Assembly: GCA_029780415.1 (NCBI GenBank)
Contig: JAKOYN010000073.1
Coordinates: 1-39,623, forward strand
Reading direction: 5' to 3'
Origin: Pseudomonadota bacterium
GTDB taxonomy: Bacteria; Pseudomonadota; Gammaproteobacteria; Competibacterales; Competibacteraceae
DNA length: 39,623 bases
A model generated the notes under the pieces. It had not been told where the DNA came from, ran no database searches, and saw nothing but the letters and a program-made list of their open reading frames with translations. This document shows, piece after piece, positions 6,601-30,074 of the stretch. Each line of letters begins with the position of its first letter. Position 1 is the first letter of the stretch. The position numbers and the translations under genes were made by a program.

Positions 6601-9600
6601 ATGCCCGACCTTCCCGTGCCCACGCTTGCCGACCCGTCCCGCTGGCAGTTCTGGATTGACCGTGGCGGTACCTTCACCGATATCGTCGCCCGCCGCCCCG
6701 ATGGCCAACTGGTGACGCATAAGCTGCTCTCGGACAATCCCGGGCATTATGCCGATGCGGCCCTGCACGGGATTCGCCAGTTGCTCGGCCTGTCCCGGGA
6801 CCAGCCAATTCCCGCCGAACGCATCGCGGCGGTGAAAATGGGCACTACCGTCGCCACCAATGCCCTTTTGGAACGCAAGGGTGACCGTACTCTGCTGCTC
6901 ATTACCCAGGGCTTTCGCGACGCTCTGCGCATCGGCTATCAGAATCGGCCCAGGCTGTTCGCCCGCCATATCGTGCTGCCGGAATTGCTGTACGAGCGGG
7001 TCGCGGAAGTGAACGAGCGGGTCGCGGCGCACGGCGACATCATCATCCCCTTCGATGCCGACAGCACCCGCGCGGCGCTGATCGACGCTTACCAGGCCGG
7101 TATCCGCGCCGTAGCCATCGTGTTCCTGCACGGCTATCGCTACCCGGATCACGAGCGGCGCGCGGCAGAACTGGCGCGCGCCATTGGCTTCAGCCAGATT
7201 TCAATCTCGCATCAGGTCAGTCCGCTGATGAAGCTGGTCGGGCGCGGCGACACCACCGTAGTGGACGCTTATCTATCGCCGATCCTGCGCCGCTACGTTG
7301 ACCGGGTGAGCGCCGAACTGGGCAACGCGCGCCTGCTGTTCATGCAGTCCAATGGTGGTCTGGCCGATGCCCGCCATTTCCAGGGCAAGGACAGCGTTCT
7401 GTCCGGCCCGGCCGGTGGCATCGTTGGCGCCGCCCGCAGCACGGCCCGCGCCGGCTTCGACCGGATCATCACCTTCGACATGGGCGGTACATCCACCGAT
7501 GTCGCCCACTACGCCGGCGCATACGAACGCGCCTTCGAAACCCTGGTCGCTGGCGTGCGGCTGCATGCACCGATGCTGCATATCCATACCGTAGCGGCGG
7601 GCGGTGGCTCGATCTGCCGCTTTGACGGCAGCCGGCTGCGGGTTGGACCGGAATCCGCCGGCGCCCATCCCGGTCCGGCCTGCTACCGGCGCGGTGGGCC
7701 GCTGACCGTGACCGACTGCAACCTGCTTCTCGGGCGGATTCAGCCGGCATTCTTCCCGCGCGTGTTCGGTGCCACTCAGGATCAGGCCCTGGACCGGGCA
7801 ACGGTCATCGACCGGTTTGCAGCGCTGGTCGCCAGAATTCAGGCCGCAACCGGAACGCTGCATACGCCAACGGCACTGGCCGAGGGCTTCCTGAATATCG
7901 CCATCGAAAACATGGCGAATGCCATCAAGCAGATTTCCACCCAGCGCGGTTATGACGTGACCGAATACACCCTGTGCTGCTTTGGCGGTGCCGGCGGCCA
8001 GCATGCCTGCGCGGTGGCCGATGCGCTGGGCATGTCGAGCGTCTTCATTCATCCCTTTGCCGGGGTGTTGTCGGCCTATGGCATGGGGCTGGCCGACGCC
8101 CGGCTGTTGCGGGAACAGGCGATCGAAGCGCCGCTGAGCGCCGCACTTTTGCCAACCCTGGAAAGGGTATTCGCCAAACTGGAACAGGCCGGCCGGACGG
8201 AAATGGCAGCGCAGGACATTCCCGCCGCGCACATCCGCAGCGCCCGTACCGTTCGCCTGCGCTACGCCAACAGCGATAGCGCTCTGAGCATCACCGCCGA
8301 TGAGCTGAGCACCCTGCAGGCACGCTTTGAAAGCGCTCACCGGCAGCGCTATGGTTTTCTCATGCCGGACAAGGCATTGATCGTACAGGCAGCGCTGCTT
8401 GAGGTGATCGGCGGTGGCTTCGATATCGGCCACGCCGATGCGCCTGAACCGGCTGGCCCTGTGCCAGAATCCAAGGCGGCATCATCAACCCCGCAACCCA
8501 TCACAACGGTCCCGGTGCATATTGCGGGTCGCGACCATGATGCGCCCCTGTACCGGCGTGACCAGTTGCGCCCCGGCGATCGCATCCCCGGTCCCGCCAT
8601 CCTGAGTGAAACCGGCGCTACGACGCTGATCGAACCCGGCTGGCAGGCCGACATCACGGCGCGGCACGATCTGGTGCTGACGCGGCATGAACCCCTCGCT
8701 CGACGGGTAGCGGTCGGGACTGCAGCGGATCCTATTTTGCTGGAGGTGTTCAACAACCGGTTCATGGCCATCGCCGAACAGATGGGCGTGACCCTGGCCA
8801 ATACCGCGCATTCGGTCAACATCAAGGAACGGCTGGATTTTTCCTGCGCGCTGTTCGACCAGAACGGTCAATTGATCGCCAACGCCCCGCATATTCCGGT
8901 GCATCTTGGTTCGATGGGCGAAGCGGTGCAGGCACTCATTCAGGCACAGGGCGACCGGTTCCTGCCCGGCGACGTCTACGCCAGCAACGCGCCCTACAGC
9001 GGCGGGACGCATCTGCCGGACATCACGGTCATCACCCCGGTTTTCGATGCAGAAGGGGAACAGGTTCTGTTCTACGTCGCCTCGCGCGGCCATCACGCCG
9101 ACATCGGCGGCATTTCGCCCGGCTCGATGCCGCCGGACAGCGTCAGCATCGATCAGGAAGGCGTGTTACTGGACAATTTTCCACTGGTGACAGGCGGACG
9201 GTTCTGCGAGCGGGAACTGCTCGAACAGTTGAACCGTGGCCCCTGGCCGGCTCGCAACCCGCAGCAAAATCTCGCTGACCTGCAGGCCCAGATTGCCGCC
9301 AACGGCAAGGGTGTGCAGGAACTGCAGCACATGGTGGCACAGTTTGGATTACCGGTGGTCCACGCCTACATGGGCCACGTCCAGGATAACGCCGCCGAAC
9401 AGGTACGCCGGGCGCTGGACCGGCTGCAGGAGGGTAAGTTCACCTACGAGATGGACAACGGCGCGGCTATCCGGGTCGCTATCACACTGGATCGGGAACG
9501 CCGCTCGGCCCGGATCGACTTCACCGGCACCTCGCCGCAACAGGCCAGCAATTTCAATGCACCGCGCGCGGTAGGTCTGGCGGCGGTGCTGTACGTGTTC

Positions 9601-10269
9601 CGCACCCTGGTGGACGACGACATCCCGCTGAACGCCGGCTGCCTGCGCCCGCTGGACATAGTCATCCCGGCAGGTTGCCTGCTCGATCCCCGCCCGCCGG
9701 CGGCAGTGGTGGCCGGCAATGTGGAAACCTCGCAGTGCGTGGTCGATGCCCTGTACGGCGCGCTCGGGGTGATGGCCGCCGCACAGGGCACCATGAACAA
9801 CTTCACCTTCGGCAACGACCGCCACCAGTATTACGAAACGATCTGTGGCGGCGCCGGCGCGGGACCGGGTTTCGATGGCGCTTCGGCGGTGCAGACCCAC
9901 ATGACCAATTCCCGGCTGACCGACCCCGAGGTGCTGGAATGGCGGTTTCCGGTGCGGCTGGAGGAGTTCTGCATCCGCGCCGGCAGTGGCGGCGCGGGCC
10001 GCTGGCGCGGCGGCGATGGCGTGATTCGGCAGCTTCGCTTCCTGGAGCCGATGAGCGCGGCGATTCTCTCCGGCCATCGCCGCATTCCACCCTACGGCCT
10101 GGCCGGCGGGGAACCGGGTCAGGTCGGACGCAATGCTGTGGAACGGGCTGATGGACGGACTGAGGAACTGCCGGGTACGGCGGTCGTCGCGATGCAGGCC
10201 GGGGATGCTGTCGTCATCGAAACGCCGGGCGGCGGGGGTTGGGGTATACCTGGCAATCCAGGCCCTTGA
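6601..10269 (+). CDS. 5-oxoprolinase / hydantoinase, fused A (N-terminal) and B (C-terminal) subunits in one 1222-aa polypeptide
   Basis: The N-terminal [14 protein letters not shown] motif belongs to the hydantoinase A/oxoprolinase family. The C-terminal half matches the hydantoinase B architecture. It is a single uninterrupted ORF. Confidence 0.85.
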
Positions 10270-10286
10270 TTTCTATCTGAACCGGA

Positions 10287-10736
10287 CTACCAGTACTGTT
10301 TAAAATCAGGCCCGCGTTCCGGCAGTTGGCGCGGCGAGCCGTCCGCGTTGACCGCGACATAGACGATCACCGCCTCGGTGACCTGATCGGACAGCAGTTC
10401 GCCATCACGGGCGCGCTGCACGAACACCTCCACCTTGACCGTGATCGAGGTCGAGCCGACCTTCTGAATCCGCGCGAAACAGCTCAGCAGGTCGCCGACG
10501 AACACCGGCTTGTGGAACTCCATCGATGTCACAGCCACGGTTGCGACCCGGCCACCGGCGTACTCGACCGCCACCACGCTGCCGGCAACGTCCATCTGCG
10601 CCATGATCCAGCCGCCGAAAATATTGCCATTGGGATTAGCGTGCGCGGGCATCGCCAGAATGCGCACGGTTGGCTGGCGATCACGCGGAAATGTGTCGGT
10701 AGTTGACGGGGTCGCGGGAGATTCGGGGGTAGACAT
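10287..10736 (-). CDS. Acyl-CoA thioesterase, hotdog fold (YciA-like)
   Basis: MSTPES...VRILAMPAHANPNGNIFGGWIMAQMDVAGS...VGSTSITVKVEVF matches the YciA-type thioesterase pattern. The start was chosen at the internal Met, where the conserved domain begins. Confidence 0.75.
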   Translation of the reverse strand: MSTPESPATPSTTDTFPRDRQPTVRILAMPAHANPNGNIFGGWIMAQMDVAGSVVAVEYAGGRVATVAVTSMEFHKPVFVGDLLSCFARIQKVGSTSITVKVEVFVQRARDGELLSDQVTEAVIVYVAVNADGSPRQLPERGPDFKQYW

Positions 10737-17887: not shown

Positions 17888-19774
17888 TCACAGTTCGGCC
17901 AGATTACCCTTCTCCTCCAGCCAGTTCTTGCGATCACCGGCGCGCTTTTTCGCCAGCAGCAGATCCATCAGCGCCAGGGTCGTATCGGCACCATCCAGGG
18001 TCAACTGCACCAGGCGCCGGGTGGCCGGGTCCATGGTGGTTTCACGCAGTTGCAGCGGATTCATCTCACCCAGGCCCTTAAAGCGGGTGACATTGACCTT
18101 GCCTTTCTTCTTCTCGGCAGCGATGCGATCAAGAATGCCCTGCTTCTCGGCCTCGTCCAGGGCATAGAACACCTCCTTGCCAACATCGATCCGGAACAGC
18201 GGTGGCATGGCCACATGCACATGGCCCGCCGCTACCAGCGGCCGGAAGTGGCGCACGAACAGCGCGCACAGCAGGGTGGCAATGTGCAGCCCGTCGGAAT
18301 CAGCGTCGGCGAGGATACACACCTTGCCATAGCGCAGCCCGCCCAGCTCCTCGGCGCCGGGATCAATACCGATCGCCACGGCGATATCGTGTACTTCCTG
18401 CGAGGCCATCACCTCGGCCGAATCGACTTCCCAGGTGTTGAGAATCTTGCCGCGCAGGGGCATCACTGCCTGGAATTCGCGGTTACGCGCCTGCTTGGCC
18501 GAGCCACCGGCGGAATCGCCCTCGACCAGAAACAGCTCGGTGCGCGCCAGATCCTGCGCGGTGCAGTCGGTGAGCTTACCGGGCAGCGCCGGGCCACTGG
18601 TGACCTGTTTGCGCACCACCTTGCGGCTGGCGCGCAGACGCCTGTGGGCATTAGCCAGCGCCAGTTGCGCGATGCGCTCGCCCATCTCGGGGTGCTGATT
18701 CAGCCACAGGCTCAGCGCGTCCTTGACCACGCCGGCGACGAACACCGCGCATTCGCGCGAGGACAGCCGTTCCTTGGTCTGGCCGGAGAACTGCGGATCA
18801 GCCAGCTTGACCGAGAGCACATAGCAGCAGCCTTCCCAGACATCTTCCGGGGCGATGCGCAGGCCGCGCGGTACCAGATTGCGGAACTCGCAAAATTCGC
18901 GCACCGCATCGGTCAGGCCGCCGCGCAGACCGTTGACATGCGTGCCGCCCTGCGGGGTGGGAATCAGGTTGACATAGCTTTCCATGACCGGCTCGCCACC
19001 GTCCGGCAGCCAGGTCAGCGCCCAGTCGGCGGCTTCATGGGCGCTGCTGACGTGGCCGACAAACGGTGGATCAGGCAACAACGCGGTCTGACCGAGTGCC
19101 TCGCGCAGGTAATCGGTAAAGCCATCCTGGTAATGCCAGATGATCTGCTCGCCGCTAGCCTCGTCGCTGAAGCTGACCTTCAGCCCCGGACACAGCACAG
19201 CCTTGGCGCGCAGCACATGCTTAAGGCGCGACACGGAGAATTTGGGTGCATCGAAATAGCGCGCATCAGGCCAGAAACGCACCGTGGTGCCGGTGATCCG
19301 GCGCGCCACCGTGCCGACCTCGGCCAGATCGGACACCTTGTCGCCGCCGGCAAAGGCGATGTGATACTGGCGACCGTTGCGCCGCACCCAGACCTCAAGA
19401 CGGCTGGACAGGGCATTCACCACCGACACGCCCACACCGTGCAGGCCACCGGAAAACTGGTAATTGCGGTTGGAAAACTTACCGCCGGCATGCAGACGGG
19501 TCAGGATCAGTTCGACGCCGGGAATGCCTTCCTCGGGGTGAATATCGACCGGCATGCCGCGGCCATCGTCCTCGACTGAGAGCGAGCCGTCGGCATACAG
19601 CACCACGCTGATGGCGCGGGCGTGGCCGGCGATGGCCTCATCGACGCTGTTGTCGATCACTTCCTGAGCCAGGTGGTTGGGCCGGCTGGTATCGGTGTAC
19701 ATGCCGGGGCGCTTGCGGACTGGGTCCAGACCGCTGAGGACTTCGATGGCGGAGGCGTCGTAGGACGTGTTCAT
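17888..19774 (-). CDS. parE: DNA topoisomerase IV subunit B
   Basis: The type II topoisomerase ATPase domain (MNTSYDASAIEVLSGLDPVRKRPGMYT) and Toprim domain are present. The ~628-aa length fits ParE rather than the ~800-aa GyrB. Confidence 0.85.
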   Translation of the reverse strand: MNTSYDASAIEVLSGLDPVRKRPGMYTDTSRPNHLAQEVIDNSVDEAIAGHARAISVVLYADGSLSVEDDGRGMPVDIHPEEGIPGVELILTRLHAGGKFSNRNYQFSGGLHGVGVSVVNALSSRLEVWVRRNGRQYHIAFAGGDKVSDLAEVGTVARRITGTTVRFWPDARYFDAPKFSVSRLKHVLRAKAVLCPGLKVSFSDEASGEQIIWHYQDGFTDYLREALGQTALLPDPPFVGHVSSAHEAADWALTWLPDGGEPVMESYVNLIPTPQGGTHVNGLRGGLTDAVREFCEFRNLVPRGLRIAPEDVWEGCCYVLSVKLADPQFSGQTKERLSSRECAVFVAGVVKDALSLWLNQHPEMGERIAQLALANAHRRLRASRKVVRKQVTSGPALPGKLTDCTAQDLARTELFLVEGDSAGGSAKQARNREFQAVMPLRGKILNTWEVDSAEVMASQEVHDIAVAIGIDPGAEELGGLRYGKVCILADADSDGLHIATLLCALFVRHFRPLVAAGHVHVAMPPLFRIDVGKEVFYALDEAEKQGILDRIAAEKKKGKVNVTRFKGLGEMNPLQLRETTMDPATRRLVQLTLDGADTTLALMDLLLAKKRAGDRKNWLEEKGNLAEL

Positions 19775-20121
19775 GAGGCGCGGCGATATCCAGGCACGTT
19801 GAAGTAGCAAGTCCACCCGACCAGTGGACGGCTGCGCATTATACGCAAGGCGGCGTGCCGCAAAACCACCGCTGGACCACGCGCTTCAGGCACCGGCGGC
19901 GCGCTGCGATCACGGCAACCCCCAGCCGATACGGATCGGTACCGACCGACCGCCCGTTTTTCAGACGCTTTTTCATGCCCTGCCCAATCTCCCGCTAACA
20001 CTGCGGATCTGTTTGCTTTTTGCCTACCGAGACACAGCAATGCCCGGCATATTGTCTTTTTTATTGAACAAATGCGCAGGGCCGGTTTGCGCTGGTTATT
20101 GCAGGCTTTTTCCCGAAGGCG

Positions 20122-20202: not shown

Positions 20203-20218
20203 TGGCACGATGGTTGCT
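20203..20218 (+). promoter_or_regulatory. Sigma-54 (RpoN) promoter, -24/-12 elements
   Basis: TGGCACGatggTTGCT is a perfect match to TGGCACG-N4-TTGCW, with GG at 20204-20205 and GC at 20216-20217. It lies ~84 bp upstream of the ATG of the first small secreted protein gene. Confidence 0.8.
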
Positions 20219-20300: not shown

Positions 20301-20588
20301 ATGAAAACCAAACTGTATAGCGCTATTGTCGGTGCCACTCTGCTGGCCGCTTCCGGTCTGGCCATGGCTGAAACCCCGCTGACCACCAGTCAGATGGACG
20401 GCGTGACTGCGGGTGGCGTCGCCACAGCAACGGCACTCGCGGCAGCGGCGGGCAAATACCTAGCGGCGACCGTAACCGAAACTGAAACCATCGTTCAGGG
20501 TGTGCTGCTGGTGCCGGTACAAGTCGGCAGCATTTGGGTCGTCGGCACAGGCGCGGGATCCTATTCCGAATCCTATGCCCACAATTAG
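20301..20588 (+). CDS. Small secreted protein, paralog 1 (Sec signal peptide plus Ala-Gly leader-like segment)
   Basis: MKTKLYSAIVGATLLAASGLAMA|ETPLTTSQMDGVTAG|GVATATALAAAAG... has an AXA signal-peptidase site followed by the conserved segment L-[ST]-x-x-[QD]-[ML]-D-x-[VI]-[TS]-A-G. A GGAGG Shine-Dalgarno sits 7 nt upstream. It is the first gene after the sigma-54 promoter. Confidence 0.7.
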   Translation: MKTKLYSAIVGATLLAASGLAMAETPLTTSQMDGVTAGGVATATALAAAAGKYLAATVTETETIVQGVLLVPVQVGSIWVVGTGAGSYSESYAHN

Positions 20589-20644
20589 CTCAGCTTTCCG
20601 GCGTAAGCACTAAACATTTGGCTGACTTATTCAGGAGACTCACC

Positions 20645-20959
20645 ATGAAACGTTTCGCGATTCTTGCCGCCGCCGCCCTGCTGGGCGCCACCAGTTATGC
20701 TAATGCCGAGACCGTGCTGTCCGGCCCGCAAATGGATCAGATCAGCGCAGGTCTTTTCGGTCTTGCGATCACCGAAGGCATGGCCATCGCCACCGGTGAT
20801 ATTGGCTCCCTGTCAACCACAAATTCGGTGAGCGGCGTTAATCTGCTTGCTCCAAACCCAATCGCCTATAGCGCGACCGCTAGCGCTGCCATAGCGACCG
20901 GCTTCCTGGGCGCGGTTGCCGGCAGTCAATCGGCAAGTGGCTCGGAGCTCGGCAACTAA
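20645..20959 (+). CDS. Small secreted protein, paralog 2
   Basis: MKRFAILAAAALLGATSYANA|ETVLSGPQMDQISAG|LFGLAITEG... shows the same signal-plus-leader motif. The mature part is Ala/Ser/Thr/Gly-rich. Confidence 0.7.
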   Translation: MKRFAILAAAALLGATSYANAETVLSGPQMDQISAGLFGLAITEGMAIATGDIGSLSTTNSVSGVNLLAPNPIAYSATASAAIATGFLGAVAGSQSASGSELGN

Positions 20960-21044
20960 GTTGCGAGTCTCTCGAAAGAGCGGTTATCAAACCTTGCGGC
21001 GCGATGACCGCTCGCGCACGACTCAAGCATTGGAGATAGACAAC

Positions 21045-21524
21045 ATGATCAAGCATATGCAGTTAAGCGCTCTATCCCTGTGCGCCTTGACCGCGACCGC
21101 TATTGCAGCGCCACCATCACAAAATCCGCTGACACTATCCAGCATTGACCTGGATCGTGTGACCGCAGGCGGCGTCGTCAATGGCGTTGTTACAGCTTCG
21201 GCAATCGCCTACGGTCCATCGGACGCCATAACCGATACCAGTACATTTTCCAGCACGACACTGAGTCCGGGACCCACAGCCGCGCAGAATTCCACATTGG
21301 TTGTAGTTGTCGGTTCAGCAACCGCCTATGGCGGACTCGGCGGCACCACGGCAACGGCAACTGACAGTGCGATTAATTCCGCCACTACCAACACCGTTGG
21401 CCATACCTACGAAATTAGCCTGCAGGGCCATCTCGCTTCATCCTCGACGGTGTTTGCCTATGAGCTCGGTCGCCCCGCGCAACTCGGTCAGGGCGCTAGT
21501 ACACCGGTGGTATCACCGTATTAG
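21045..21524 (+). CDS. Small secreted protein, paralog 3
   Basis: MIKHMQLSALSLCALTATAIA|APPSQNPLTLSSIDLDRVTAG|GVVNG... shows the same motif. The mature part is Thr/Ser/Ala/Gly-rich and low-complexity. Confidence 0.7.
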   Translation: MIKHMQLSALSLCALTATAIAAPPSQNPLTLSSIDLDRVTAGGVVNGVVTASAIAYGPSDAITDTSTFSSTTLSPGPTAAQNSTLVVVVGSATAYGGLGGTTATATDSAINSATTNTVGHTYEISLQGHLASSSTVFAYELGRPAQLGQGASTPVVSPY

Positions 21525-21529
21525 CCGAT

Positions 21530-21553
21530 CAGGCGTCCCTTCCCGGACGCCTG
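21530..21553 (+). terminator. GC-rich hairpin (9-bp stem) just after paralog 3, with no U-tract; a possible partial terminator or attenuator
   Basis: CAGGCGTCC-cttccc-GGACGCCTG starts 6 bp after the stop codon at 21522-21524. Confidence 0.35.
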
Positions 21554-21603
21554 CGCCGTGCGTGTCCCGGCAATTCCTTCTAGACGGCAGGATCGAGATA
21601 CTC

Positions 21604-22065
21604 ATGAATATGCAAAGCCGATTTCTTTCCCGCACCGGATTCGCTGGCATTTTGGCGCTATTTATACCTCTGGGATCACTCGCTGCTGAAACCACTAGCC
21701 CGGCAGCGACCGTAATTATTCGTTGCGCCTGGCCCGGACCCGCGACGAATCCGGACAATGCCCCTGCCACCGATGGCAACAGCGCTTGCACCTGCGTGAG
21801 CAACGGCAATGGCAGCACCTGCAGTTGCACCAGCGGCGCGGCGACCCCGGTCAATAGCGGCTCCACACCCGTCTTCACCGTCGATGCCAGCTCCAACACA
21901 CCTGCAACCCTGGTCGAGCACCTGAAAACCGCCACCAGTTGCGCCGATGCCAGGGCGTTCACCGAATCCGCCAGTGACGGCGCCCGCCAAGCCTGTACCC
22001 CCCTGGCCAGCGGCTCGGTGAATGCCCTGCTTTATTCCTGCACCGTTCCCGGCACTCCACTGTAG
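21604..22065 (+). CDS. Cysteine-rich secreted protein (8 Cys) with no Ala-Gly leader motif
   Basis: MNMQSRFLSRTGFAGILALFIPLGSLA|AETTSP... is a signal peptide. The mature part carries C-x-C/C-x-C-type cysteine clusters. Confidence 0.6.
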   Translation: MNMQSRFLSRTGFAGILALFIPLGSLAAETTSPAATVIIRCAWPGPATNPDNAPATDGNSACTCVSNGNGSTCSCTSGAATPVNSGSTPVFTVDASSNTPATLVEHLKTATSCADARAFTESASDGARQACTPLASGSVNALLYSCTVPGTPL

Positions 22066-22102
22066 AACCTGTATACCCTGTATCCCAGCACTCGCGCCGC
22101 AG

Positions 22103-22144
22103 AAAAAAAGGAAACGGGCAAAAAACTCTCTGTCACCCGTTTCC
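22103..22144. terminator. Hairpin with an upstream A7 run after the Cys-rich gene; terminator-like when read on the minus strand, or weakly bidirectional
   Basis: AAAAAAA-GGAAACGGG-(17-nt loop)-CCCGTTTCC. On the minus strand the stem is followed by TTTTTTT. Confidence 0.4.
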
Positions 22145-22331
22145 AGCTAACGCGGCGCGGCACCACTTGCCCACGCACGCACCGCGCGACCCCACCTGAC
22201 CCATCGCCCACGCCATGTGCCCCGGTTGACATCATCCCCAGCAAGTCACATTTTTATTATTTATAGAATCAAAATTGATATTTTTATACTAGGATTGTGA
22301 TAGAAAAATCTGCACATGGAGTTGCCAAACC

Positions 22332-22982
22332 ATGCGTGCCAGCCTCATACCCTGCCGCTGCTTTCCCGCGATCATCCTCGCCACGCTCCTGCTCACCGGC
22401 CCGATCCAGACCACTCACGCCGAGGACTATCCGCCGGTCAAGTCACTGCTGGAAATACGCCGCGAACGGGTTGTAATCCAGAAATGGGATCTGAGTTGCG
22501 GCGCCGCAGCCCTGACCACCCTGTTGCGCTACCAGCACGGCGACCCGGTCACCGAAAAGGATGTCGCCACCGCGCTAATCAACCGTAGCGAATATCTGCG
22601 CAATCCTCAGCTCGTGCAGATTCGTGAGGGCTTTTCCCTACTCGACCTCAAGCGCTATGTCGATGGTCGCGGCTATCAGGGCACCGGCCTGGGCCAGCTC
22701 ACCCTCGACGACCTCAATCGGCGCGCACCGATCCTGATTCCGATCCAGACCCGGGGCTACAACCACTTCGTGGTGTTCCGTGGCCAACGCGACAACCGCG
22801 TCCTGCTCGCTGACCCGGCCTGGGGCAACCGCACCATGACCGTAGAGCACTTCATGCAGGCTTGGATCGACTACCCAAAAATCGGTCACGTTGGCTTCGT
22901 CGTCGAAGCAGCGCCCGGTCATCCACGCAGCGCATCCACACCGCTTGCACCGCGCCCCGAGGAATTCGTCACGTTCAATTGA
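22332..22982 (+). CDS. Standalone periplasmic C39-like cysteine peptidase (Peptidase_C39_2 / FapD-like architecture)
   Basis: A signal peptide is followed by the catalytic Cys context WDLSCGAAALTTLLRYQ, the His context GYNHFVVFRG, and the Asp context LLADPAWG. Length is 216 aa. There is no ABC-transporter fusion. Confidence 0.75.
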   Translation: MRASLIPCRCFPAIILATLLLTGPIQTTHAEDYPPVKSLLEIRRERVVIQKWDLSCGAAALTTLLRYQHGDPVTEKDVATALINRSEYLRNPQLVQIREGFSLLDLKRYVDGRGYQGTGLGQLTLDDLNRRAPILIPIQTRGYNHFVVFRGQRDNRVLLADPAWGNRTMTVEHFMQAWIDYPKIGHVGFVVEAAPGHPRSASTPLAPRPEEFVTFN

Positions 22983-23054
22983 GCCCCCTCCAGCACTTTC
23001 CGCCGCCATGCAGGGAACCGATTTCATCGTCAAATGCACGCAAGGAGATTATTC

Positions 23055-24299
23055 ATGGCCCGTCTGCCGTTTCGCTGGACCCGCCACCCCCTTTCACGCC
23101 ATCCGCTTACGAGCTGTTGCACGACGCTGGGCATCAGCACCCTGAGCCTGTGCCTGCTGAGCGGCGCGCCCGCCAGCGCCGACGATGTCATCACACAAGC
23201 CGACGCCCGCCAGTTACGCCAGGAACTGCGCGAACGGGATCGCATCATTGCTGAACTGCTGGCACGGGTCAGCGAACTGGAACGCCGCATGGATGGCGAC
23301 ACCACGCCACCGGCCAGCACCAGACGCCGCGCCACTGCCAGGACCCGTACCGCACAAATCACCGCGCCGGCACCTGTCGCCACACCTACACCCACGCCTG
23401 AACCGGTAAGCAGCGCGGTCGCGCCGCCTGCTCCGACCGGTCCCGGCGCGGTGGCCATCGATGCACAGGCTGCAGAACGGGCCCTGGAACGGACCCTGAC
23501 CGCCGAGGGCGCCCTGCTGCTGCCAGCGGGCAGTTACGACTTCGAGCCGTACTTCAATTACAACCGCCGGGTCAACGATGGCCCAACCCTGGTGCAAACC
23601 GACGCAGGCATCCTGGCGCGCAGCTTCGGGATCCGTCGCAATGAATTTGATCTGGGTCTGCGCGCCCGCGTCGGCCTGCCCTATGACGCCCAGGTGGAAC
23701 TCGACCTGCCCTATCGCAGCGTCAATCAGGAGCTGTTGCGACCCACCGGCCTGGCCGGCTTCGACAGCACTGAAAATACCGGCTCGGCCATCGGCGACAT
23801 CCGCCTGGGCATCGCCAAAACCCTCAGCCGCGAAAGTGGCTGGCAACCGGACCTGGTCGGACGCCTGACCTGGAACACCGGCACTGGGGAAATCGTCGAT
23901 CAGAACGTACCGATGGGCGATGGCTTCAACCGCCTGCGCGCCTCACTGACTGCGCTCAAGCGTCAGGATCCCCTGGCCTTCACTGCCAGCCTGGCCTACC
24001 AAACCACATTTGAAAAAGACGGTGTCCAACCTGGCAACGAGCTTGGCCTGTCCTTCGGCGTCTCGCTGGCCGCCAGCCCGGAAACCTCGCTGAGTCTTGC
24101 GCTGGCCCAGAGCTTTACTGCCGAAACCGAGTTGAATGGCCGCACGGTTACCGGCAGCGATCAGGTCAGCGGTGTGCTATTGCTCGGCGCATCCTCGGTG
24201 ATCAACCGGCAGACCCTGCTGCTGGTAACCGGCGCCATCGGCCTGACCGATGACGCCCCGGATTACGGCATCAGCATATCGCTACCGATCCGTTTCTAG
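23055..24299 (+). CDS. Outer-membrane beta-barrel with an N-terminal periplasmic coiled coil and Pro/Thr-rich linker (FapF-like architecture)
   Basis: The signal ends ...LLSGAPASA. The coiled-coil heptads are DARQLRQELRERDRIIAELLARVSELERRM, followed by the linker TPPASTRRRATARTRTAQITAPAPVATPTPTPEP. A putative plug helix is AQAAERALERTL. Amphipathic beta-strands end ...ISLPIRF. An AAGGAG Shine-Dalgarno precedes the ATG. Confidence 0.75.
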   Translation: MARLPFRWTRHPLSRHPLTSCCTTLGISTLSLCLLSGAPASADDVITQADARQLRQELRERDRIIAELLARVSELERRMDGDTTPPASTRRRATARTRTAQITAPAPVATPTPTPEPVSSAVAPPAPTGPGAVAIDAQAAERALERTLTAEGALLLPAGSYDFEPYFNYNRRVNDGPTLVQTDAGILARSFGIRRNEFDLGLRARVGLPYDAQVELDLPYRSVNQELLRPTGLAGFDSTENTGSAIGDIRLGIAKTLSRESGWQPDLVGRLTWNTGTGEIVDQNVPMGDGFNRLRASLTALKRQDPLAFTASLAYQTTFEKDGVQPGNELGLSFGVSLAASPETSLSLALAQSFTAETELNGRTVTGSDQVSGVLLLGASSVINRQTLLLVTGAIGLTDDAPDYGISISLPIRF

Positions 24300-25863
24300 A
24301 CCGTCGCCGCCACAGCAACAGCAGCGCCAGCCCGCCACCCAGCAGCCACAGGGTGGCGGCTTCCGCGAGCGGCGGTACCGGCACCGGCCCCGCGAAGGAC
24401 AGCAGCGCGCTGACCGGTGTCGAAACCGGCGTATCGATGGCCTCCAGCACCCCAGTGTCAAAACCCAGGAACAGTTCCGGCAGGTAGAACGAATCCATGC
24501 TGATGCGGCTGAGAAATGCCGCCAGCCAGCGGGAATCGCTCTGCGCGCCCGGTTCCGTCATCAGAATTGGCGCGAAGCCATTGAAACCCTGCACCGGATG
24601 CAAGCTGCCGTCCAGGACCACGGTCGGCGTGCGTGCAGTCAGCACCACATGATGGTTTCCATCGAACAGGCGCAGATCGCTACCGGAAAAATACCGCCGG
24701 CCCTCCAGAGTGCCCAACTGCGCCAGCGGATCAATCTCCAGAAATCCACCCAGCAGGGAATCCGCCAGTTCATCGGCATCGAATGTCCAGTCGCGCCCAC
24801 CCCGAAGCATATCGAGCGGAATCGGATCAAAAGCCAGCAGGCCGCTGGAGGGATCCCAGTGCACCTGCGGATCGCCAGGCGCACCGGACGCCCGGTAGCC
24901 GGCGGATTCTTCGACCTGTATCACCGCGCGGGGCGGTGCCTCGTAGGACTGCTCGGTGTGACGGCTGAACAGGATCAGCCCAAGCGGAGCAAATTCCCGA
25001 TCAAAGGCATCCAGCAGCGGCACCGCTACGCGCAACGGCTCCGCGTCCGGCTGCAGCAGCAGGCGACCCGCAGCAGCGTTGAACTGCGTGGCGAACCAGT
25101 CACGGATCGCGTCACTCCCTGGCACATCAAACACCCGGACCGTGGGCAAGCCATTTTCCAGGTAGCCCAGAAAACCGACCTCATCGTAGCGCACCGCGCC
25201 CGTCGCGCTGATCTGCACAGTCGTCAGCGTATCGCGCATGTAGGCCAGACTGCTCGCCGGCGTGCCCTGCCAGCGCAGCGTATCGAAATCCCAATCCAGA
25301 TGCAGGAACAGATCATCGCTCCCCCGGTCGGGATCGGCGCGGAGCTGAATACCCAGGGCCATACCCTCGGTCATGGCGGTGGCGCGGCCAAAGAGCGGCT
25401 CGGTAGCCCACGCAGCAGCATAGGTCGCCTGGCTTATCGCGAACTGGGCCAGCATGCCGCTCTCATCGAGAGCGCCACCAAGCCATGCCCCGGGGGCCAT
25501 CCCAACCGCGATGCCCGCCCCGGCAGTCGCTGCATGCGCACTGACCCCAGGCACTGCAATTGACGTAAATCCCAAGCCGTCCTGCACTGAACGCACCGTA
25601 GTCGCAAATGTCACCGTACTCGTCGTCGATCCCGCTTGGGCAAGCGCATAGGGATTGCCAATAAACTCAATACCCGCCGTTTCCGACAGCCCGATCGTCA
25701 TAGTCAAAATGCTTGCCGTTTCTGCAGCAGGCACAAAAGATGTTTGCGCAACAGCTGAATTCATAGCGATGCCAAGCCAGCCGATGCCCACTATTGAAAG
25801 CCATCCTTTGTCCCGAAAATACTGCTTTCCGTATTCAGCAAGCGCTCCCTTTAATCTCTGCAT
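24271..25863 (-). CDS. Secreted protein with a PEP-CTERM-like C-terminal sorting signal (variant Pro-rich motif)
   Basis: The N-terminus is MQRLKGALAEYGKQYFRDKGWLSIVGIGWLGIAMNSAVAQ. The C-terminus is ...VPVPPLAEAATLWLLGGGLALLLLWRRRSRNGSVAIC, giving a Pro motif, a TM helix and an Arg cluster. The 3' end overlaps the convergent OMP gene by 29 bp. The start is uncertain, since the ORF is open up to 26067. Confidence 0.6.
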   Translation of the reverse strand: MQRLKGALAEYGKQYFRDKGWLSIVGIGWLGIAMNSAVAQTSFVPAAETASILTMTIGLSETAGIEFIGNPYALAQAGSTTSTVTFATTVRSVQDGLGFTSIAVPGVSAHAATAGAGIAVGMAPGAWLGGALDESGMLAQFAISQATYAAAWATEPLFGRATAMTEGMALGIQLRADPDRGSDDLFLHLDWDFDTLRWQGTPASSLAYMRDTLTTVQISATGAVRYDEVGFLGYLENGLPTVRVFDVPGSDAIRDWFATQFNAAAGRLLLQPDAEPLRVAVPLLDAFDREFAPLGLILFSRHTEQSYEAPPRAVIQVEESAGYRASGAPGDPQVHWDPSSGLLAFDPIPLDMLRGGRDWTFDADELADSLLGGFLEIDPLAQLGTLEGRRYFSGSDLRLFDGNHHVVLTARTPTVVLDGSLHPVQGFNGFAPILMTEPGAQSDSRWLAAFLSRISMDSFYLPELFLGFDTGVLEAIDTPVSTPVSALLSFAGPVPVPPLAEAATLWLLGGGLALLLLWRRRSRNGSVAIC

Positions 25864-26158
25864 GAATCGCAAAGGTTTGCAATCATCTTGAGCCTGGAAC
25901 CGAATACGGCCATGGATATGCAAACTGCCACAGGTCAAATCCAGAAACGCTCCAGAATCCAGCAGCCGCAAACAGTCAGGCATCCATGAAGTCCAAGGCC
26001 AAACTGCCTGTAAAACCGCTGCATCATATAATCCCGCTCGCCCTATCCTGAATTGCATGGCGACCACCTCACAAGCGACATAAATCCTGAAATTCCATGT
26101 CAGAAAATCCCGTATCCATTTCCATAAATGGATTCCTGAACCCGGACACTAACAGAAC

Positions 26159-27544
26159 TTATTTCCTGAGTTTTCTATGCGCCTGATTATTTTCGTTCAT
26201 CTCTACATTGAACTTGCAAAGCCGGTACAGCGAGGCGCGGGAAATACCCAGAACCTTGGCCGCGCGGGTCAGGTTTCCATTAGCATGCTGAATCGCGATG
26301 TGGATTGCATCATGCTCGGCTCTCTTGCGCGCCTCTTCAATAGTGACGATTTGTCTGGAATTATTGCGCCGATCCAGATCCAGATGTTTCGGAGCAATCA
26401 GCCGGTCATCGCAAAACAGCACCGCTCGCTCGACCCGGTTGATCAACTCGCGCACATTGCCAGGCCAGTTGTGCACACGCATGACCCGCAAGGCTTCAAT
26501 GCTGAAGTCTCTGGGTTTCGACTTGTTTTGCTCCCTGAGAAATTTCTCTAGAAAACAATAAGCTAGATCTATAATATCGTCTTCTCTTTCCCGCAGTGGC
26601 GGCATTTGCAGATGCAGTGTATTCAAGCGATAGTACAGATCCTCACGAAAAGTACCCTCGACCACCGCGCGCTTCAAATCGCGATGGGTAGCGGCAATGA
26701 CACGCACATTCAGACCAATACTTTCAGTACCGCCCAAGCGCTCGATGGTTTTCTCCTGCAGAAAGCGCAGCAGGGCTATTTGTACATCCGGAGCGATATC
26801 GCCTATCTCATCAAGCAGAATTGTACCTTCGTTTGCAGCTTCAATCTTGCCCATCTTGAAGCGGTTTGCGCCGGTAAAGGCACCTCTTTCATATCCAAAA
26901 AGTTCGGATTGAATCAGATTGGCCGGCAATGCAGCACTGTTGACCGTAATCCATGGACCTTTCGCGCGCTGGGAAAATTGATGCAGGGCGCGCGCTGCCA
27001 GTTCCTTGCCTGTTCCGCTTTCGCCGGTAATCAACACGGTTTTTTCAACCGGCGCCATTTTAATGATCTGCTGCCGGACATTCTTCATGGCAGTGGACTT
27101 GCCAATTAGAATGTAATTTTTTTCAATCGACGTGTCGTAATTCCTGGCGATAGATCGTGCCAACTCACTCATGCCATAGGCGCGACAGAGAGCCGGCAAC
27201 AATCGCGACATGTCGATGGGTAATCGCTGGTAATCGTAGAAATGGTTCACAATCGTCTCGCGAACCGCAGGATTGGAGATGGCCGCATCATCGGTCATGG
27301 CAATCCATTGCACATGTTTTCCCAAACTAACCAGTTCCTGGATACAGCGCAAAAAATCCGGTTGATAGCGGGTCATAAACACGATACCCACCCGGTGATT
27401 ATCGGTAAAAATAGCTTTCTTGGCGCTGTTGATGTCATTAATCTTGGTCACATTCCAGTGATCAAGACCAATATTATCAACCAAACTCATACCGTCATGA
27501 TCAGAAAAAAAAAGCAAAACATCTCTACGGTTCAATGTGGACAT
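26159..27544 (-). CDS. Sigma-54-dependent transcriptional activator (bEBP) with a degenerate N-terminal receiver-like domain
   Basis: AAA+ motifs are present: Walker A GESGTGKE, GAFTGA, and ESELFGYERGAFTGA. The C-terminus has a Fis-type HTH (AAKVLGISRASLYRL). The N-terminal ~130 aa look like a receiver fold lacking the acceptor Asp. The gene is markedly AT-richer than its surroundings. Confidence 0.85.
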   Translation of the reverse strand: MSTLNRRDVLLFFSDHDGMSLVDNIGLDHWNVTKINDINSAKKAIFTDNHRVGIVFMTRYQPDFLRCIQELVSLGKHVQWIAMTDDAAISNPAVRETIVNHFYDYQRLPIDMSRLLPALCRAYGMSELARSIARNYDTSIEKNYILIGKSTAMKNVRQQIIKMAPVEKTVLITGESGTGKELAARALHQFSQRAKGPWITVNSAALPANLIQSELFGYERGAFTGANRFKMGKIEAANEGTILLDEIGDIAPDVQIALLRFLQEKTIERLGGTESIGLNVRVIAATHRDLKRAVVEGTFREDLYYRLNTLHLQMPPLREREDDIIDLAYCFLEKFLREQNKSKPRDFSIEALRVMRVHNWPGNVRELINRVERAVLFCDDRLIAPKHLDLDRRNNSRQIVTIEEARKRAEHDAIHIAIQHANGNLTRAAKVLGISRASLYRLCKFNVEMNENNQAHRKLRK

Positions 27545-28711
27545 TGCAACCCCCTAATGACCGCCATTATCCGAAAACCACAATACATCACATGGTTTTT
27601 ATCCAGCCAAGCCAAGTAAAAATCTTAGCAACTCCGAACCTTCGCCATGTGTTGATCGTCCACACTGATCCTAGTATGTATTTTCTTGATTGTGCAATTT
27701 GTCGATCATTTTTATGTCTTGTTTTTAAGATTTTTTATGTCAAAATTTTATGACGTTATACAAATATGGCACTTTTTATATTATTAATCAGCTCATTGAT
27801 GGCATCTTGGCATACGTATTCATGCATCGATACCCCATCATGCATCAACATAAGCATCCATGACTGGAATATTGACACATAAAACCGCCCGATCAAAACG
27901 GCATGATCTGGATTACTTATTCCATTATCAGGGATAACCATGATTTCCATGCACAATAATCCTATCGCATAAAAAGGCGACACAACCAAGCTCCAACAGT
28001 TTTTCCTTAATCAACTATTTTTATTAACTAAATGATTTTAAATAAAATTTATAATCGCATTCATGAAAATATACGCAATAAAGCATTTGCTTTTACAGAA
28101 CAGCATCCGTTGCCTTGCGAAAATCGATCAGAGCATTTCACCAAATAAATCAGGAGACGCACTATCAGGAAAGCCGAAAAGGAGAGACGTGGAGGAAAGC
28201 TAAACTGGCTGCTGCGTGTCTCACGCTGACACATTTGCCTAGCGCATGCCCGGCAAATCCTTCACCCTACAGAACAGGCGCATGTCATGGCATTCACATC
28301 CGCCGCGTGGACGCTGCGCAATGCGTCCCGGGCGACAGGCGCCATCAGGGGATTGATCGAGGAACAGCAAGCCGCTCGATTCGACCAGCGCCGCTCAATT
28401 GCGTGACTGCAGGGCATGCAGTCGCCCGCAGGAACCTTTCATGCGAGAGGTCCGTTGTGCAATCTGTTCCAACACACGGTCGAGCAGCAACCAAGAACGA
28501 TCCTCGAAATTGCACGCCAGCGCCACCCAGCCAATCACCGGCATGCTTCAACCATTGCCAACAGCCACAGGTTCGGAATGCAGGATCATGGCAAGCGCTA
28601 CGCACAGCCAACAGCCGCGCCCCTTGGCCTTGATCAAACCCAGGACTTTCGCTTACCTGACTTTTTCCGTCATACGCGGGAAAGCGGGTATCCATTCTTT
28701 TCAACAAGCTA

Positions 28712-28801
28712 CTGGATTCCCGCATACGCGGGAATGACGAACGACGCGATGTTGAGTCTGTATCTGACCTTCTGAATTCCCGCATACGCGGGAATGACGA
28801 A
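28712..28801. repeat. Two 30-bp direct repeats with internal dyad symmetry around a 30-bp unique spacer, plus a degenerate copy upstream; CRISPR-like geometry or a REP-type element
   Basis: CTGRATTCCCGCATACGCGGGAATGACGAA occurs at 28712-28741 and 28772-28801, a period of 60 bp. The core TTCCCGC-atac-GCGGGAA is a stem-loop. A degenerate CATACGCGGGAA copy lies at ~28671. No cas genes are present in the window. Confidence 0.5.
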
Positions 28802-28823
28802 AAGCGAAAGTCCCGAAACCAAC

Positions 28824-28851
28824 AAAAAAGCGGCCTTACGGCCGCTTTTTT
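28824..28851. terminator. Bidirectional rho-independent terminator serving pgk (minus strand)
   Basis: AAAAAA-GCGGCC-ttac-GGCCGC-TTTTTT is a perfect stem with A and T runs on both sides. It lies 25 bp downstream of the pgk stop. Confidence 0.85.
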
Positions 28852-28875
28852 CCTCAGCAAAAACGACTTGTTACG

Positions 28876-30057
28876 TCAGTCGTTAGCGCGCTGTTCCAGC
28901 ATCGCCACCGCGGGCAGCACCTTGCCTTCCAGGAATTCCAGAAATGCGCCGCCCGCCGTAGAGATGTAGGACACCTTGTCATAAATGTCGTACTTCTGAA
29001 TCGCGGCGATGGTGTCGCCGCCGCCGGCCAGCGTGAAGGCCTGAGTGTTGGCAATCGCCATGGCGATGGTCTTGGTACCCTCGCCGAACTGGTCGAACTC
29101 GAACACACCAACCGGACCGTTCCAGACCACGGTGCCGGCCTTCATGATGATGTCGGCCAGTTCCTGGGCGCTCTGCGGGCCAATATCGAAGATCATGTCG
29201 TCATCAGCAACCGCACCGGCATCCTTCAGCACCGCCGGTTCCGCCGCATCGAACTGCTTGCCGCAGACCACATCAACCGCGATCGGAATGGTCGCGCCGC
29301 GCGCGGTCATCTTCTCGATCAACATCTGGGCGGTCGGCACCAGATCATCCTCGCACAGCGACTTGCCGACGTTCTTGCCGGTGGCCTTCAGGAAGGTATT
29401 GGCGATACCACCGCCCACCACAAGCTGGTCAACCTTCTCCGACAGGCTTTCCAGCACGGTCAGCTTGGTCGACACCTTGGAGCCGCCGACGATCGCGACC
29501 AGCGGTCGGGCCGGCTTGGCCAGCGCCTTGGTCAACGCATCCAGTTCCTCAGTCAGCAGGATGCCGGCGCAGGCCACCGGTGCGAACTTGGCGACGCCAT
29601 GGGTGGAAGCCTCGGCACGATGCGCGGTACCAAAAGCGTCCATAACGAAGATATCGCACAGGGCAGCATACTTCCTGGCCGTGTCCTCGACGTTCTTCTT
29701 TTCGCCCTTGTTGATGCGGCAGTTTTCCAGCAGCACCACTTCACCGGCGGCAACGTCAAAGCCACCATTGACCCAGTCACGGATTACCCGCACCGGCTTG
29801 CCCAGCTTGGCGGCCATCACATCGGCAACCGGCTGCAGCGAGTTTTCCTCGGAGAACTCGCCCTCAGTAGGCCGGCCCAGATGCGAGGTGACCATCACTT
29901 TGGCGCCAGCCTTCAGCGCGAACTCGATGGTCGGCATCGACGCGGTGATGCGCGCGTCGGAGGTGACCTTGCCGTTCTTGACCGGCACATTCAGGTCGGC
30001 GCGGATAAACACTCGCTTGCCGGCCAGGTCGAGATCGGTCATACGCTTGAAATTCAT
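28876..30057 (-). CDS. pgk: Phosphoglycerate kinase
   Basis: [26 protein letters not shown] aligns with the canonical Pgk N-terminus. The start is the second ATG, which has an AAGAGG Shine-Dalgarno at 9 nt. An alternative start is at 30066. Confidence 0.9.
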
Positions 30058-30074
30058 CTGGATCATCCTCTTTG

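Follow-up and report, generated by a model that had tools for sequence, protein, structure and literature searches.

Organisation of the locus

The subject of this analysis is a gene for a sigma-54 activator, together with the gene island in which it lies, on contig JAKOYN010000073.1 (assembly GCA_029780415.1), a stretch of 39,623 nucleotides from a gammaproteobacterium of the Competibacteraceae that is referred to throughout as the window. Members of this family are uncultured glycogen-accumulating bacteria of wastewater. The island is bounded by parE (17888-19816) and pgk (28876-30066), both on the minus strand, and its features are collected in Table 1. The regulator gene starts with an ATG codon that is preceded, 7 nt upstream, by the Shine-Dalgarno sequence AGGGGG, and it is convergent to an operon that encodes small secreted proteins, a C39 peptidase and a FapF-like outer-membrane barrel. 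The operon is headed by a predicted sigma-54 promoter, referred to below by its position as the 20203 promoter. From its sequence, the regulator is predicted to be a complete, functional bacterial enhancer-binding protein (bEBP) of the BrfA family, and as a protein it is ordinary for that family.

Table 1. Features of the regulator gene and of the island around it. Positions are those of the window; GC3 is the GC content at third codon positions; aa, amino acids.
Feature	Position	Strand	Details
BrfA-family sigma-54 bEBP gene (predicted)	26159-27544	-	461 aa; GC 0.488, GC3 0.545
VpsR-type pseudo-receiver (aa 1-135)	27140-27544	-	PF20161, aa 9-119, E 1.6e-15
Thr58 codon, acceptor position	27371-27373	-	directly after β3
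AAA+ sigma-54 interaction domain	26609-27109	-	PF00158, E 6.9e-67, aa 146-312
Walker A	27002-27025	-	motif position
GAFTGA	26867-26884	-	aa 221-226
Walker B	26801-26818	-	motif position
Fis-type HTH_8 DNA-binding domain (aa 408-441)	26222-26323	-	PF02954, E 2.7e-9
Sigma-54 (-24/-12) promoter TGGCACGATGGTTGC, predicted regulator target	20203-20217	+	intergenic, 83 nt before first gene
Small secreted protein genes, four	20301-20588, 20645-20959, 21045-21524, 21604-22065	+	from translations
Periplasmic C39 peptidase, FapD/FilB-like	22332-22982	+	Pfam Peptidase_C39 E 1.5e-13
FapF-like outer-membrane barrel	23034-24299	+	PDB FapF 5o67 E 2e-6, aa 249-420
Secreted protein, ~530 aa	24271-25863	-	downstream of regulator, same orientation; open reading frame open to 26067
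AT-rich 5' non-coding region of regulator	27545-28110		GC 0.35
Spacer to pgk	28111-28875		two exact palindromes and pgk terminator hairpin 28824-28851

Domain architecture of the regulator

Four Pfam families account for the regulator, namely VpsR (PF20161), Sigma54_activat (PF00158), AAA_lid_14 (PF25601) and HTH_8 (PF02954), and the Walker A, Walker B, GAFTGA and sensor II motifs are all intact. No NCBIfam equivalog scored above its cutoff in a scan of the protein. The top-scoring model was that of the PEP-CTERM-box regulator PrsR (TIGR02915), which reached 388.9 bits where its cutoff is 502.6, and it aligned with residues 65-444 only.

The N-terminal domain was modelled with AlphaFold2 (AF2) from a 69-sequence alignment, yielding for residues 1-135 a (β/α)5 receiver fold with a predicted local distance difference test score of 88.9 and a predicted TM-score of 0.85. 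In this model, strand β3 comprises residues 52-57 (VGIVFM), and Thr58 follows immediately, at the position where a phospho-receiver would carry its acceptor aspartate. The other pocket residues are Phe13-Ser14 after β1, Thr84 after β4 and Leu108 after β5, such that of the canonical phospho-receiver residues the β4 threonine alone is present. In a 115-sequence alignment of the family, the acceptor column holds Asp in 61 sequences, whereas the β1 acidic pair and the β5 lysine are absent family-wide. In orthologs of the window protein the acceptor column shows Ser or Lys, and in the BrfA ortholog of Pseudomonas described below it shows Gln. The HMMER pairwise alignment to VpsR is shifted in register by two, placing Asp59 of VpsR opposite Phe56; there is, however, no Asp or Glu at residues 56-58, and the loss of the acceptor is therefore robust to an alignment shift of two positions in either direction.

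Both sequence and structure place this domain with VpsR. The first Foldseek match of the N-domain is 7y19, the VpsR-type protein BrpR, followed by ordinary receivers such as those of DctD and NtrX, and no FleQ receiver is among the best 50 structural matches. In a sequence search of the PDB, the only genuine matches are VpsR (7v2b) and Vibrio vulnificus BrpR (7y19). The same search also returned transcription activator-like effector (TALE) proteins with E-values down to 5e-27. These matches were rejected as an artefact, as they disappeared once the query was trimmed, leaving VpsR alone. Helix α5, RLLPALCRAYGM (aa 114-125; 27170-27205), resembles the TALE repeat core RLLPVLCQAHGL, and the spurious scores arise because a likeness of 12 residues is summed over the TALE repeats. 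Pfam Response_reg finds no match in the regulator, nor does the FleQ domain PF06490 at E ≤ 0.01, the matches to FleQ being confined to the AAA+ domain.

The N-domain is thus confirmed, at the level of sequence and model, as a VpsR-type pseudo-receiver without a phospho-acceptor aspartate, and not as a FleQ-type domain. A first-pass annotation of this DNA had recognised a receiver fold lacking the acceptor and had noted that no histidine kinase is adjacent. Both observations are borne out, the latter for the window as well as for the orthologous loci L001, L007 and L021, whereas the assignment to FleQ-type regulators that accompanied them has to be given up.

A divergent Fap-like operon behind a sigma-54 promoter

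The 20203 promoter is the sole zero-mismatch occurrence of TGGCAC-N5-TTGC in the window, and no second sigma-54 promoter was found before the regulator gene or before the PEP-CTERM-like gene downstream of it. In a comparison of the promoter region with that of L021, the conserved sequence consists of the -24 element, the -12 element in part, and a neighbouring A/T block. The first-pass annotation had already tied the regulator to this promoter, a link that is retained here as a predicted one; the Fap-like fibre operon that the promoter heads had been missed.

Two genes of the operon resemble components of fap systems. The periplasmic C39 peptidase matches the NCBIfam models for FilB (4e-29) and FapD (7e-26), and the barrel protein that for FapF (1.8e-13), all below cutoff. 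The four small secreted proteins are rich in Ala, Gly and Thr, and they have no match to a Pfam or NCBIfam family, including no match to FapBC (PF27129) or to an NCBIfam Fap model at E ≤ 1. In three of the four, the signal peptide is directly followed by a motif of the form L..(Q/S)(M/I)D.(V/I)(T/S)AG(G), of the type L..QMD.VTAGG, which recalls double-glycine leaders and the EEL..(M/L)RG(G/R) motif of FapE-like proteins encoded in true fap loci (L011, L013, L015, L016 and L020). Such a motif suggests that the small proteins may be substrates of the periplasmic C39 peptidase. Judged by its gene content, the predicted target operon is Fap-like, and is not a canonical fap operon.

The secreted protein of about 530 residues that is encoded downstream of the regulator carries a PEP-CTERM/VPDSG-CTERM tail, with matches to the sorting domains below cutoff. 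In L007 and L021 its ortholog begins 37 nt beyond the stop codon of the regulator, and the L007 copy has a PEP motif. In the same two loci, an S8 peptidase of 939-944 residues with CLIPPER domains (L007 8517-11336, L021 5830-8664) is encoded between the C39 peptidase and the small-protein genes; at this position the window has just a 266-bp AT-rich gap (22066-22331, GC 0.50).

Relationship to BrfA and to other c-di-GMP-responsive regulators

The sequence of FapF from Pseudomonas sp. UK4, taken from the PDB alignment, was used as a query for Pseudomonas FapF and led to a fap locus (L020) in which fapA-F are followed by a convergent gene of 1,326 bp (9146-10471) encoding a protein of 441 residues. 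This gene is taken to be the brfA ortholog by its position, convergent to fapF, and by its size, not by accession. Its product has the same Pfam set as the window regulator (VpsR plus Sigma54_activat), and the two proteins are 43% identical over 414 residues (E 9e-110), in an alignment that takes in the N-domain from residue 30 onwards. In Pseudomonas fluorescens, brfA is likewise 1,326 bp long, codes for a Fis-family regulator that depends on RpoN, and lies downstream of fapA-F in convergent orientation; the -24/-12 promoter of fapA has been mapped by 5' rapid amplification of cDNA ends (5'-RACE), and deletion of either brfA or rpoN abolishes fapA-E transcription, with loss of the biofilm matrix (PMC9207406). 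BrfA is also said to sense cyclic di-GMP (c-di-GMP) directly (PMC13101488, with reference to Guo 2024, Microbiol Res 287:127864). In the literature, c-di-GMP binding and the need for RpoN are known for BrfA of Pseudomonas only (PMC13101488, PMC9207406).

The resemblance to BrfA of strains PF07 and SBW25 thus extends over the whole protein, from the VpsR domain through the Sigma54_activat domain with its GAFTGA motif to the helix-turn-helix, as well as to an acceptor residue other than Asp and to a gene placed convergent to the end of a C39/FapF operon that is preceded by a -24/-12 promoter. On the basis of this architecture, of the 43% identity and of the operon and promoter next door, the regulator is assigned to the BrfA family; it joins a recently described kind of regulator, and does so beside a divergent Fap-like operon without FapB/C. 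There are differences nevertheless. The window operon has no detectable FapA or FapB/FapC, encoding four small secreted proteins instead, a PEP-CTERM-like gene lies just downstream of the regulator, and the low GC content of the regulator gene makes it a strong outlier, unlike its Pseudomonas counterpart, which agrees with its host (GC3 0.74).

Beyond the Competibacteraceae group, the next homologs are 46-48% identical to the window protein, and all contain the VpsR domain. Of five distant homolog loci that were sampled, four adjoin operons with a FapBC protein and/or a C39 peptidase and small secreted proteins, namely those of Acidithiobacillus ferrivorans SS3, Sulfuricella, GCA_000423825 and a metagenome-assembled genome of the Syntrophotaleaceae. 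In every fap-associated locus (L011, L014, L015, L016, L020) a -24/-12 promoter is found 40-115 nt before the first fap gene. The arrangement known from BrfA, in which a bEBP with a VpsR-type pseudo-receiver, a -24/-12 promoter and a fap-type operon occur together, hence reaches well beyond Pseudomonas, being seen in Acidithiobacillus, Sulfuricella, Syntrophotaleaceae and Competibacteraceae, and it includes operons whose cargo is not recognisable as FapB/C.

Several observations were made at the relatives themselves. One Pseudomonas locus (L019, GCA_005223225.1) has fapA-F with a sulfatase gene after fapF and no brfA there, and thus adjacency of brfA is not universal even within Pseudomonas. 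In Sulfuricella (L013), a HisKA_2 gene lies upstream of a family member that bears Asp, at a distance of about 430 nt, and genes for CheB-CheR-PAS fusions lie near family members in Sulfuricella and Thiocystis (features at L013 8909-9574, L013 3215-5812 and L017 12086-15211). GGDEF-EAL genes adjoin the regulator gene of Thiocystis and the fap locus of A. ferrivorans. Two proteins from short metagenome contigs, P0005 and P0011, were considered as domain-swapped relatives and rejected. Their C-terminal parts are 92-100% identical to the regulator, their N-termini are those of unrelated bEBPs, and the junctions fall at the conserved bEBP motifs GESGTGKELAARALH or DLYYRLNTLHLQ, which gives them the appearance of chimeras assembled from paralogous bEBPs. 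A search of plasmids yielded nothing closer than BerB-like proteins, which are 26-28% identical.

Three further regulators invite comparison. VpsR of Vibrio cholerae and BrpR of V. vulnificus share the PF20161 N-domain with the window protein, and provide its best matches in the PDB by sequence and by structure (7v2b, 7y19). Both are c-di-GMP-responsive regulators of biofilm matrix, and VpsR, which is without the sigma-54-contact residues, works with sigma-70 RNA polymerase (PMC6158489). In the window protein, by contrast, GAFTGA is intact, and where VpsR keeps Asp59 there is Thr58 (or Phe56). In the case of BerB from Burkholderia cenocepacia, a GAFTGA-bearing, RpoN-dependent bEBP that binds c-di-GMP activates matrix genes (PMC5552954). 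A Burkholderia plasmid protein found in the context of a BerA-like (Crp/Fnr) protein and polysaccharide genes has a VpsR domain (51 bits) that is 26% identical to the window N-domain; its identity as BerB is given by context only, but the domain suggests that BerB belongs to the same broad group. The target of BerB is a polysaccharide regulator and cluster rather than a Fap-like operon, and the similarity is much lower than that to BrfA.

FleQ of Pseudomonas aeruginosa is a c-di-GMP-responsive bEBP whose receiver-like N-domain is not phosphorylated. Its AAA+ domain is homologous to that of the window protein, and the logic of its N-domain is analogous. This does not amount to family membership, however, given the lack of a FleQ-domain match in Pfam and of a FleQ receiver among the best structural matches described above.

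Proposed mode of action

Taken together, it is considered likely that a BrfA-family bEBP activates the convergent Fap-like operon from the 20203 promoter, that it does so outside phospho-control and with c-di-GMP as the likeliest input, and that its gene belongs to an old low-GC island. In such a scheme, the regulator would bind upstream of the 20203 promoter, and its ATP hydrolysis would open the closed complex formed there by sigma-54 RNA polymerase. The opened promoter would then allow expression of the operon, providing small secreted fibre or matrix proteins together with the FapD-like C39 peptidase and the FapF-like channel. The input to the regulator would be something other than phosphorylation, in view of Thr58 and of a pocket without the acidic residues and the lysine. 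The likeliest input, to judge from BrfA, VpsR and BerB, would be c-di-GMP; a signal of this type is plausible, as BrfA, the nearest relative to have been characterised, reportedly senses it (PMC13101488).

Support for this scheme comes from the recurrence of the regulator, the adjacent fap genes and the sigma-54 promoter across four proteobacterial lineages. A number of observations weigh against it. The -12 element of the promoter reads TTGT in L021, not TTGC. No binding site for the regulator was found, the footprinting comparison with L021 yielding the promoter and the A/T block only, and rpoN is not within the window. The small proteins have no FapBC family match, and for that reason the operon cargo is not demonstrated to be amyloid. 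No fap genes lie within 8 kb of one of the five sampled distant homologs, that of Thiocystis (L017), which adjoins a GGDEF-EAL gene instead. The motif by which FleQ contacts c-di-GMP is reportedly LFRS, and no such motif was evident when the regulator sequence was read by eye.

If correct, the scheme gives a concrete role in the Competibacteraceae to a protein that is otherwise a generic 'sigma-54 dependent Fis family regulator', namely control of a Fap-like surface-fibre operon. Such an operon may contribute to the matrix of flocs or granules.

Origin of the AT-richness

The regulator gene stands out from the rest of the window by its composition. Its GC3 compares with a mean of 0.786±0.028 (minimum 0.742) in 18 other window genes (z = -8.5), and GC1 and GC2 are low too. 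The window as a whole has a GC content of 0.616 (0.60-0.66 in a typical 500-nt segment), and there is a trough at 25501-29000 that reaches its minimum of 0.374 in the 500-nt segment 27501-28000. The protein is affected as well, with amino acids of AT-rich codons (FYMINK) making up 0.284 of its residues versus 0.218±0.030 in 105 homologs. The dip extends past the regulator: GC3 is 0.59 over the 5' third of the gene downstream and 0.56-0.68 in the four genes for small proteins (20301-22065).

The AT-rich anomaly of the regulator is therefore confirmed as real, and lies well outside the variation within the window. In this respect the first-pass annotation was sound: the open reading frame and the ATG that it quoted are present, and the gene, a GAFTGA-bearing bEBP, and its leader are AT-rich as described. 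Its background figure of about 65% GC was slightly high, although the contrast itself is real, and its outline of the AT-rich span, correct for the regulator and leader, left out the start of the downstream gene and the small-protein genes. The run ttttatttttatt that it placed in 27545-28110 is absent from that region, the sole copy in the window being at 462-474.

Recent acquisition had been offered as the explanation, the gene being a foreign one, possibly silenced by an H-NS/MvaT-like protein on the AT-rich gene and its 560-bp leader. The depth of the GC3 anomaly, the low GC of the leader and the leaning of amino-acid usage towards AT-rich codons are what this would lead one to expect. Low GC is, moreover, not a family trait, as brfA-like genes in six other genomes match the composition of their hosts (GC3 0.63-0.87). 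The orthologs in the Competibacteraceae nevertheless make a recent arrival unlikely. Those in L007 (64% identity) and L021 (63%) occupy the same slot between pgk and parE, in the order pgk, AT-rich leader of 600-700 bp, regulator, PEP-CTERM-like gene, FapF-like gene, C39 peptidase gene and, further on, parE, and the AT-richness of their regulator genes is greater still, GC3 being 0.29 and 0.37 as compared with 0.66-0.77 in neighbouring island genes and about 0.78-0.81 in the flanks. These loci are well diverged from the window. For instance, Gap and Pgk of the window and L007 are 94-96% identical as proteins and 60-67% identical at 4-fold sites, and the regulator is saturated at such sites (0.32). 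Given the shared slot and the even lower GC3 in diverged orthologs, any transfer probably predates these lineages.

Two further observations point the same way. Against its ortholog in L009, which is 96% identical, the regulator gene has 78 synonymous and 19 nonsynonymous codon differences, indicating that it is under purifying selection. No closer donor lineage of low GC was found among 5.8 billion clusters, the next matches after the Competibacteraceae group being 48% identical. Three diverged relatives have the island locus in synteny, and among the island open reading frames that were scanned there was no integrase, no transposase or other mobility gene and no tRNA gene. The low-GC anomaly is limited to the regulator gene together with its leader and the beginning of the gene downstream. 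These sequence comparisons point to an ancient foreign origin with uneven amelioration, or to a locus-specific AT bias that has been maintained, and not to a recent insertion.

One further reading of a maintained bias is that AT-richness is selectively kept as a control handle, acting through an H-NS/MvaT-like protein or DNA curvature, and gates a c-di-GMP switch over new, non-FapC secreted fibres for floc or granule formation. Its basis is that the regulator and leader are AT-rich (GC3 0.29-0.55), whereas the rest of the Fap-like island is nearer to host composition, a pattern seen in lineages whose housekeeping genes are well diverged at synonymous sites. This proposal is speculative and rather improbable; if true, the AT-rich regulator would be a built-in gate on fibres relevant to floc and granule formation. 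The lasting AT-richness of the regulator gene alone presents a small evolutionary puzzle, and the cargo of the operon is also unfamiliar.

Alternative targets and inputs

A different objection to the scheme in which the regulator activates the Fap-like operon is that it may control another target, such as a PEP-CTERM/exosortase polysaccharide locus elsewhere, with a second bEBP serving the 20203 promoter. The top NCBIfam score, that of the PEP-CTERM-box regulator TIGR02915, would fit such a role, as would the PEP-CTERM-like tail of the co-oriented downstream gene and the position of the Burkholderia BerB-like protein in a polysaccharide cluster. However, that score (389 bits against a cutoff of 503) excludes the N-domain, and the triad of regulator, fap genes and sigma-54 promoter recurs in four proteobacterial lineages and has been tested genetically in Pseudomonas (PMC9207406). 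A different target is therefore regarded as very unlikely. That the protein is a conventional response regulator, with a kinase encoded elsewhere phosphorylating a nearby acidic residue such as Asp63, is most improbable: the canonical Asp is kept in 61 of 115 family members, and the Asp-bearing Sulfuricella member has the HisKA_2 gene noted above, but the acceptor position is Thr58 here, Ser or Lys in orthologs and Gln in Pseudomonas BrfA, the β1 acidic pair and β5 lysine for phosphotransfer are gone family-wide, and none of four syntenic loci has an adjacent kinase gene.

The leader, the spacer and repeats at the island borders

The leader of the regulator gene is about 88-90% identical to that of L009 and has no detectable similarity to its equivalent in L007 (609 bp, GC 0.32). 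An Rfam search for a riboswitch or small RNA in the two leaders gave no match at gathering thresholds, and the sub-threshold matches all fall on the pgk terminator. An open reading frame of 77 residues within the window leader (27756-27989, minus strand), called as a gene of 64-75 residues in related contigs, is probably spurious; it is open in L009, but with changes that are for the most part nonsynonymous, and L007 shows no sign of it.

The spacer between the leader and the pgk terminator holds two exact 20-nt palindromes, ATTCCCGCATACGCGGGAAT, at 28716-28735 and 28776-28795. They lie inside 33-nt direct repeats, and a degenerate third copy is close by (total span 28657-28801). The palindromes fit the form ATTCCC-N8-GGGAAT, which is that of Neisseria dRS3 repeats.

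Another repeat, ATGCCCKGCA, occurs four times in the window (20040, 20266, 28246 and 28408), in every case within one or other of the two non-coding island borders. By chance 0.63 copies would be expected, and none of 100 shuffles reached four, although the motif was chosen post hoc and L007 lacks it. At 20040 it forms part of the perfect palindrome ATGCCCGGCAT, which lies some 160 nt upstream of the sigma-54 promoter. A search of inverted repeats for enhancer sites produced ATGCCCKGCA as a post hoc candidate only. A 19-nt block, GCTGCGCATTATACGCAAG, at 19831-19849 is identical in the window and L021 and holds TATAAT on the parE strand, which, to judge from this sequence, is probably the -10 element of the parE promoter.

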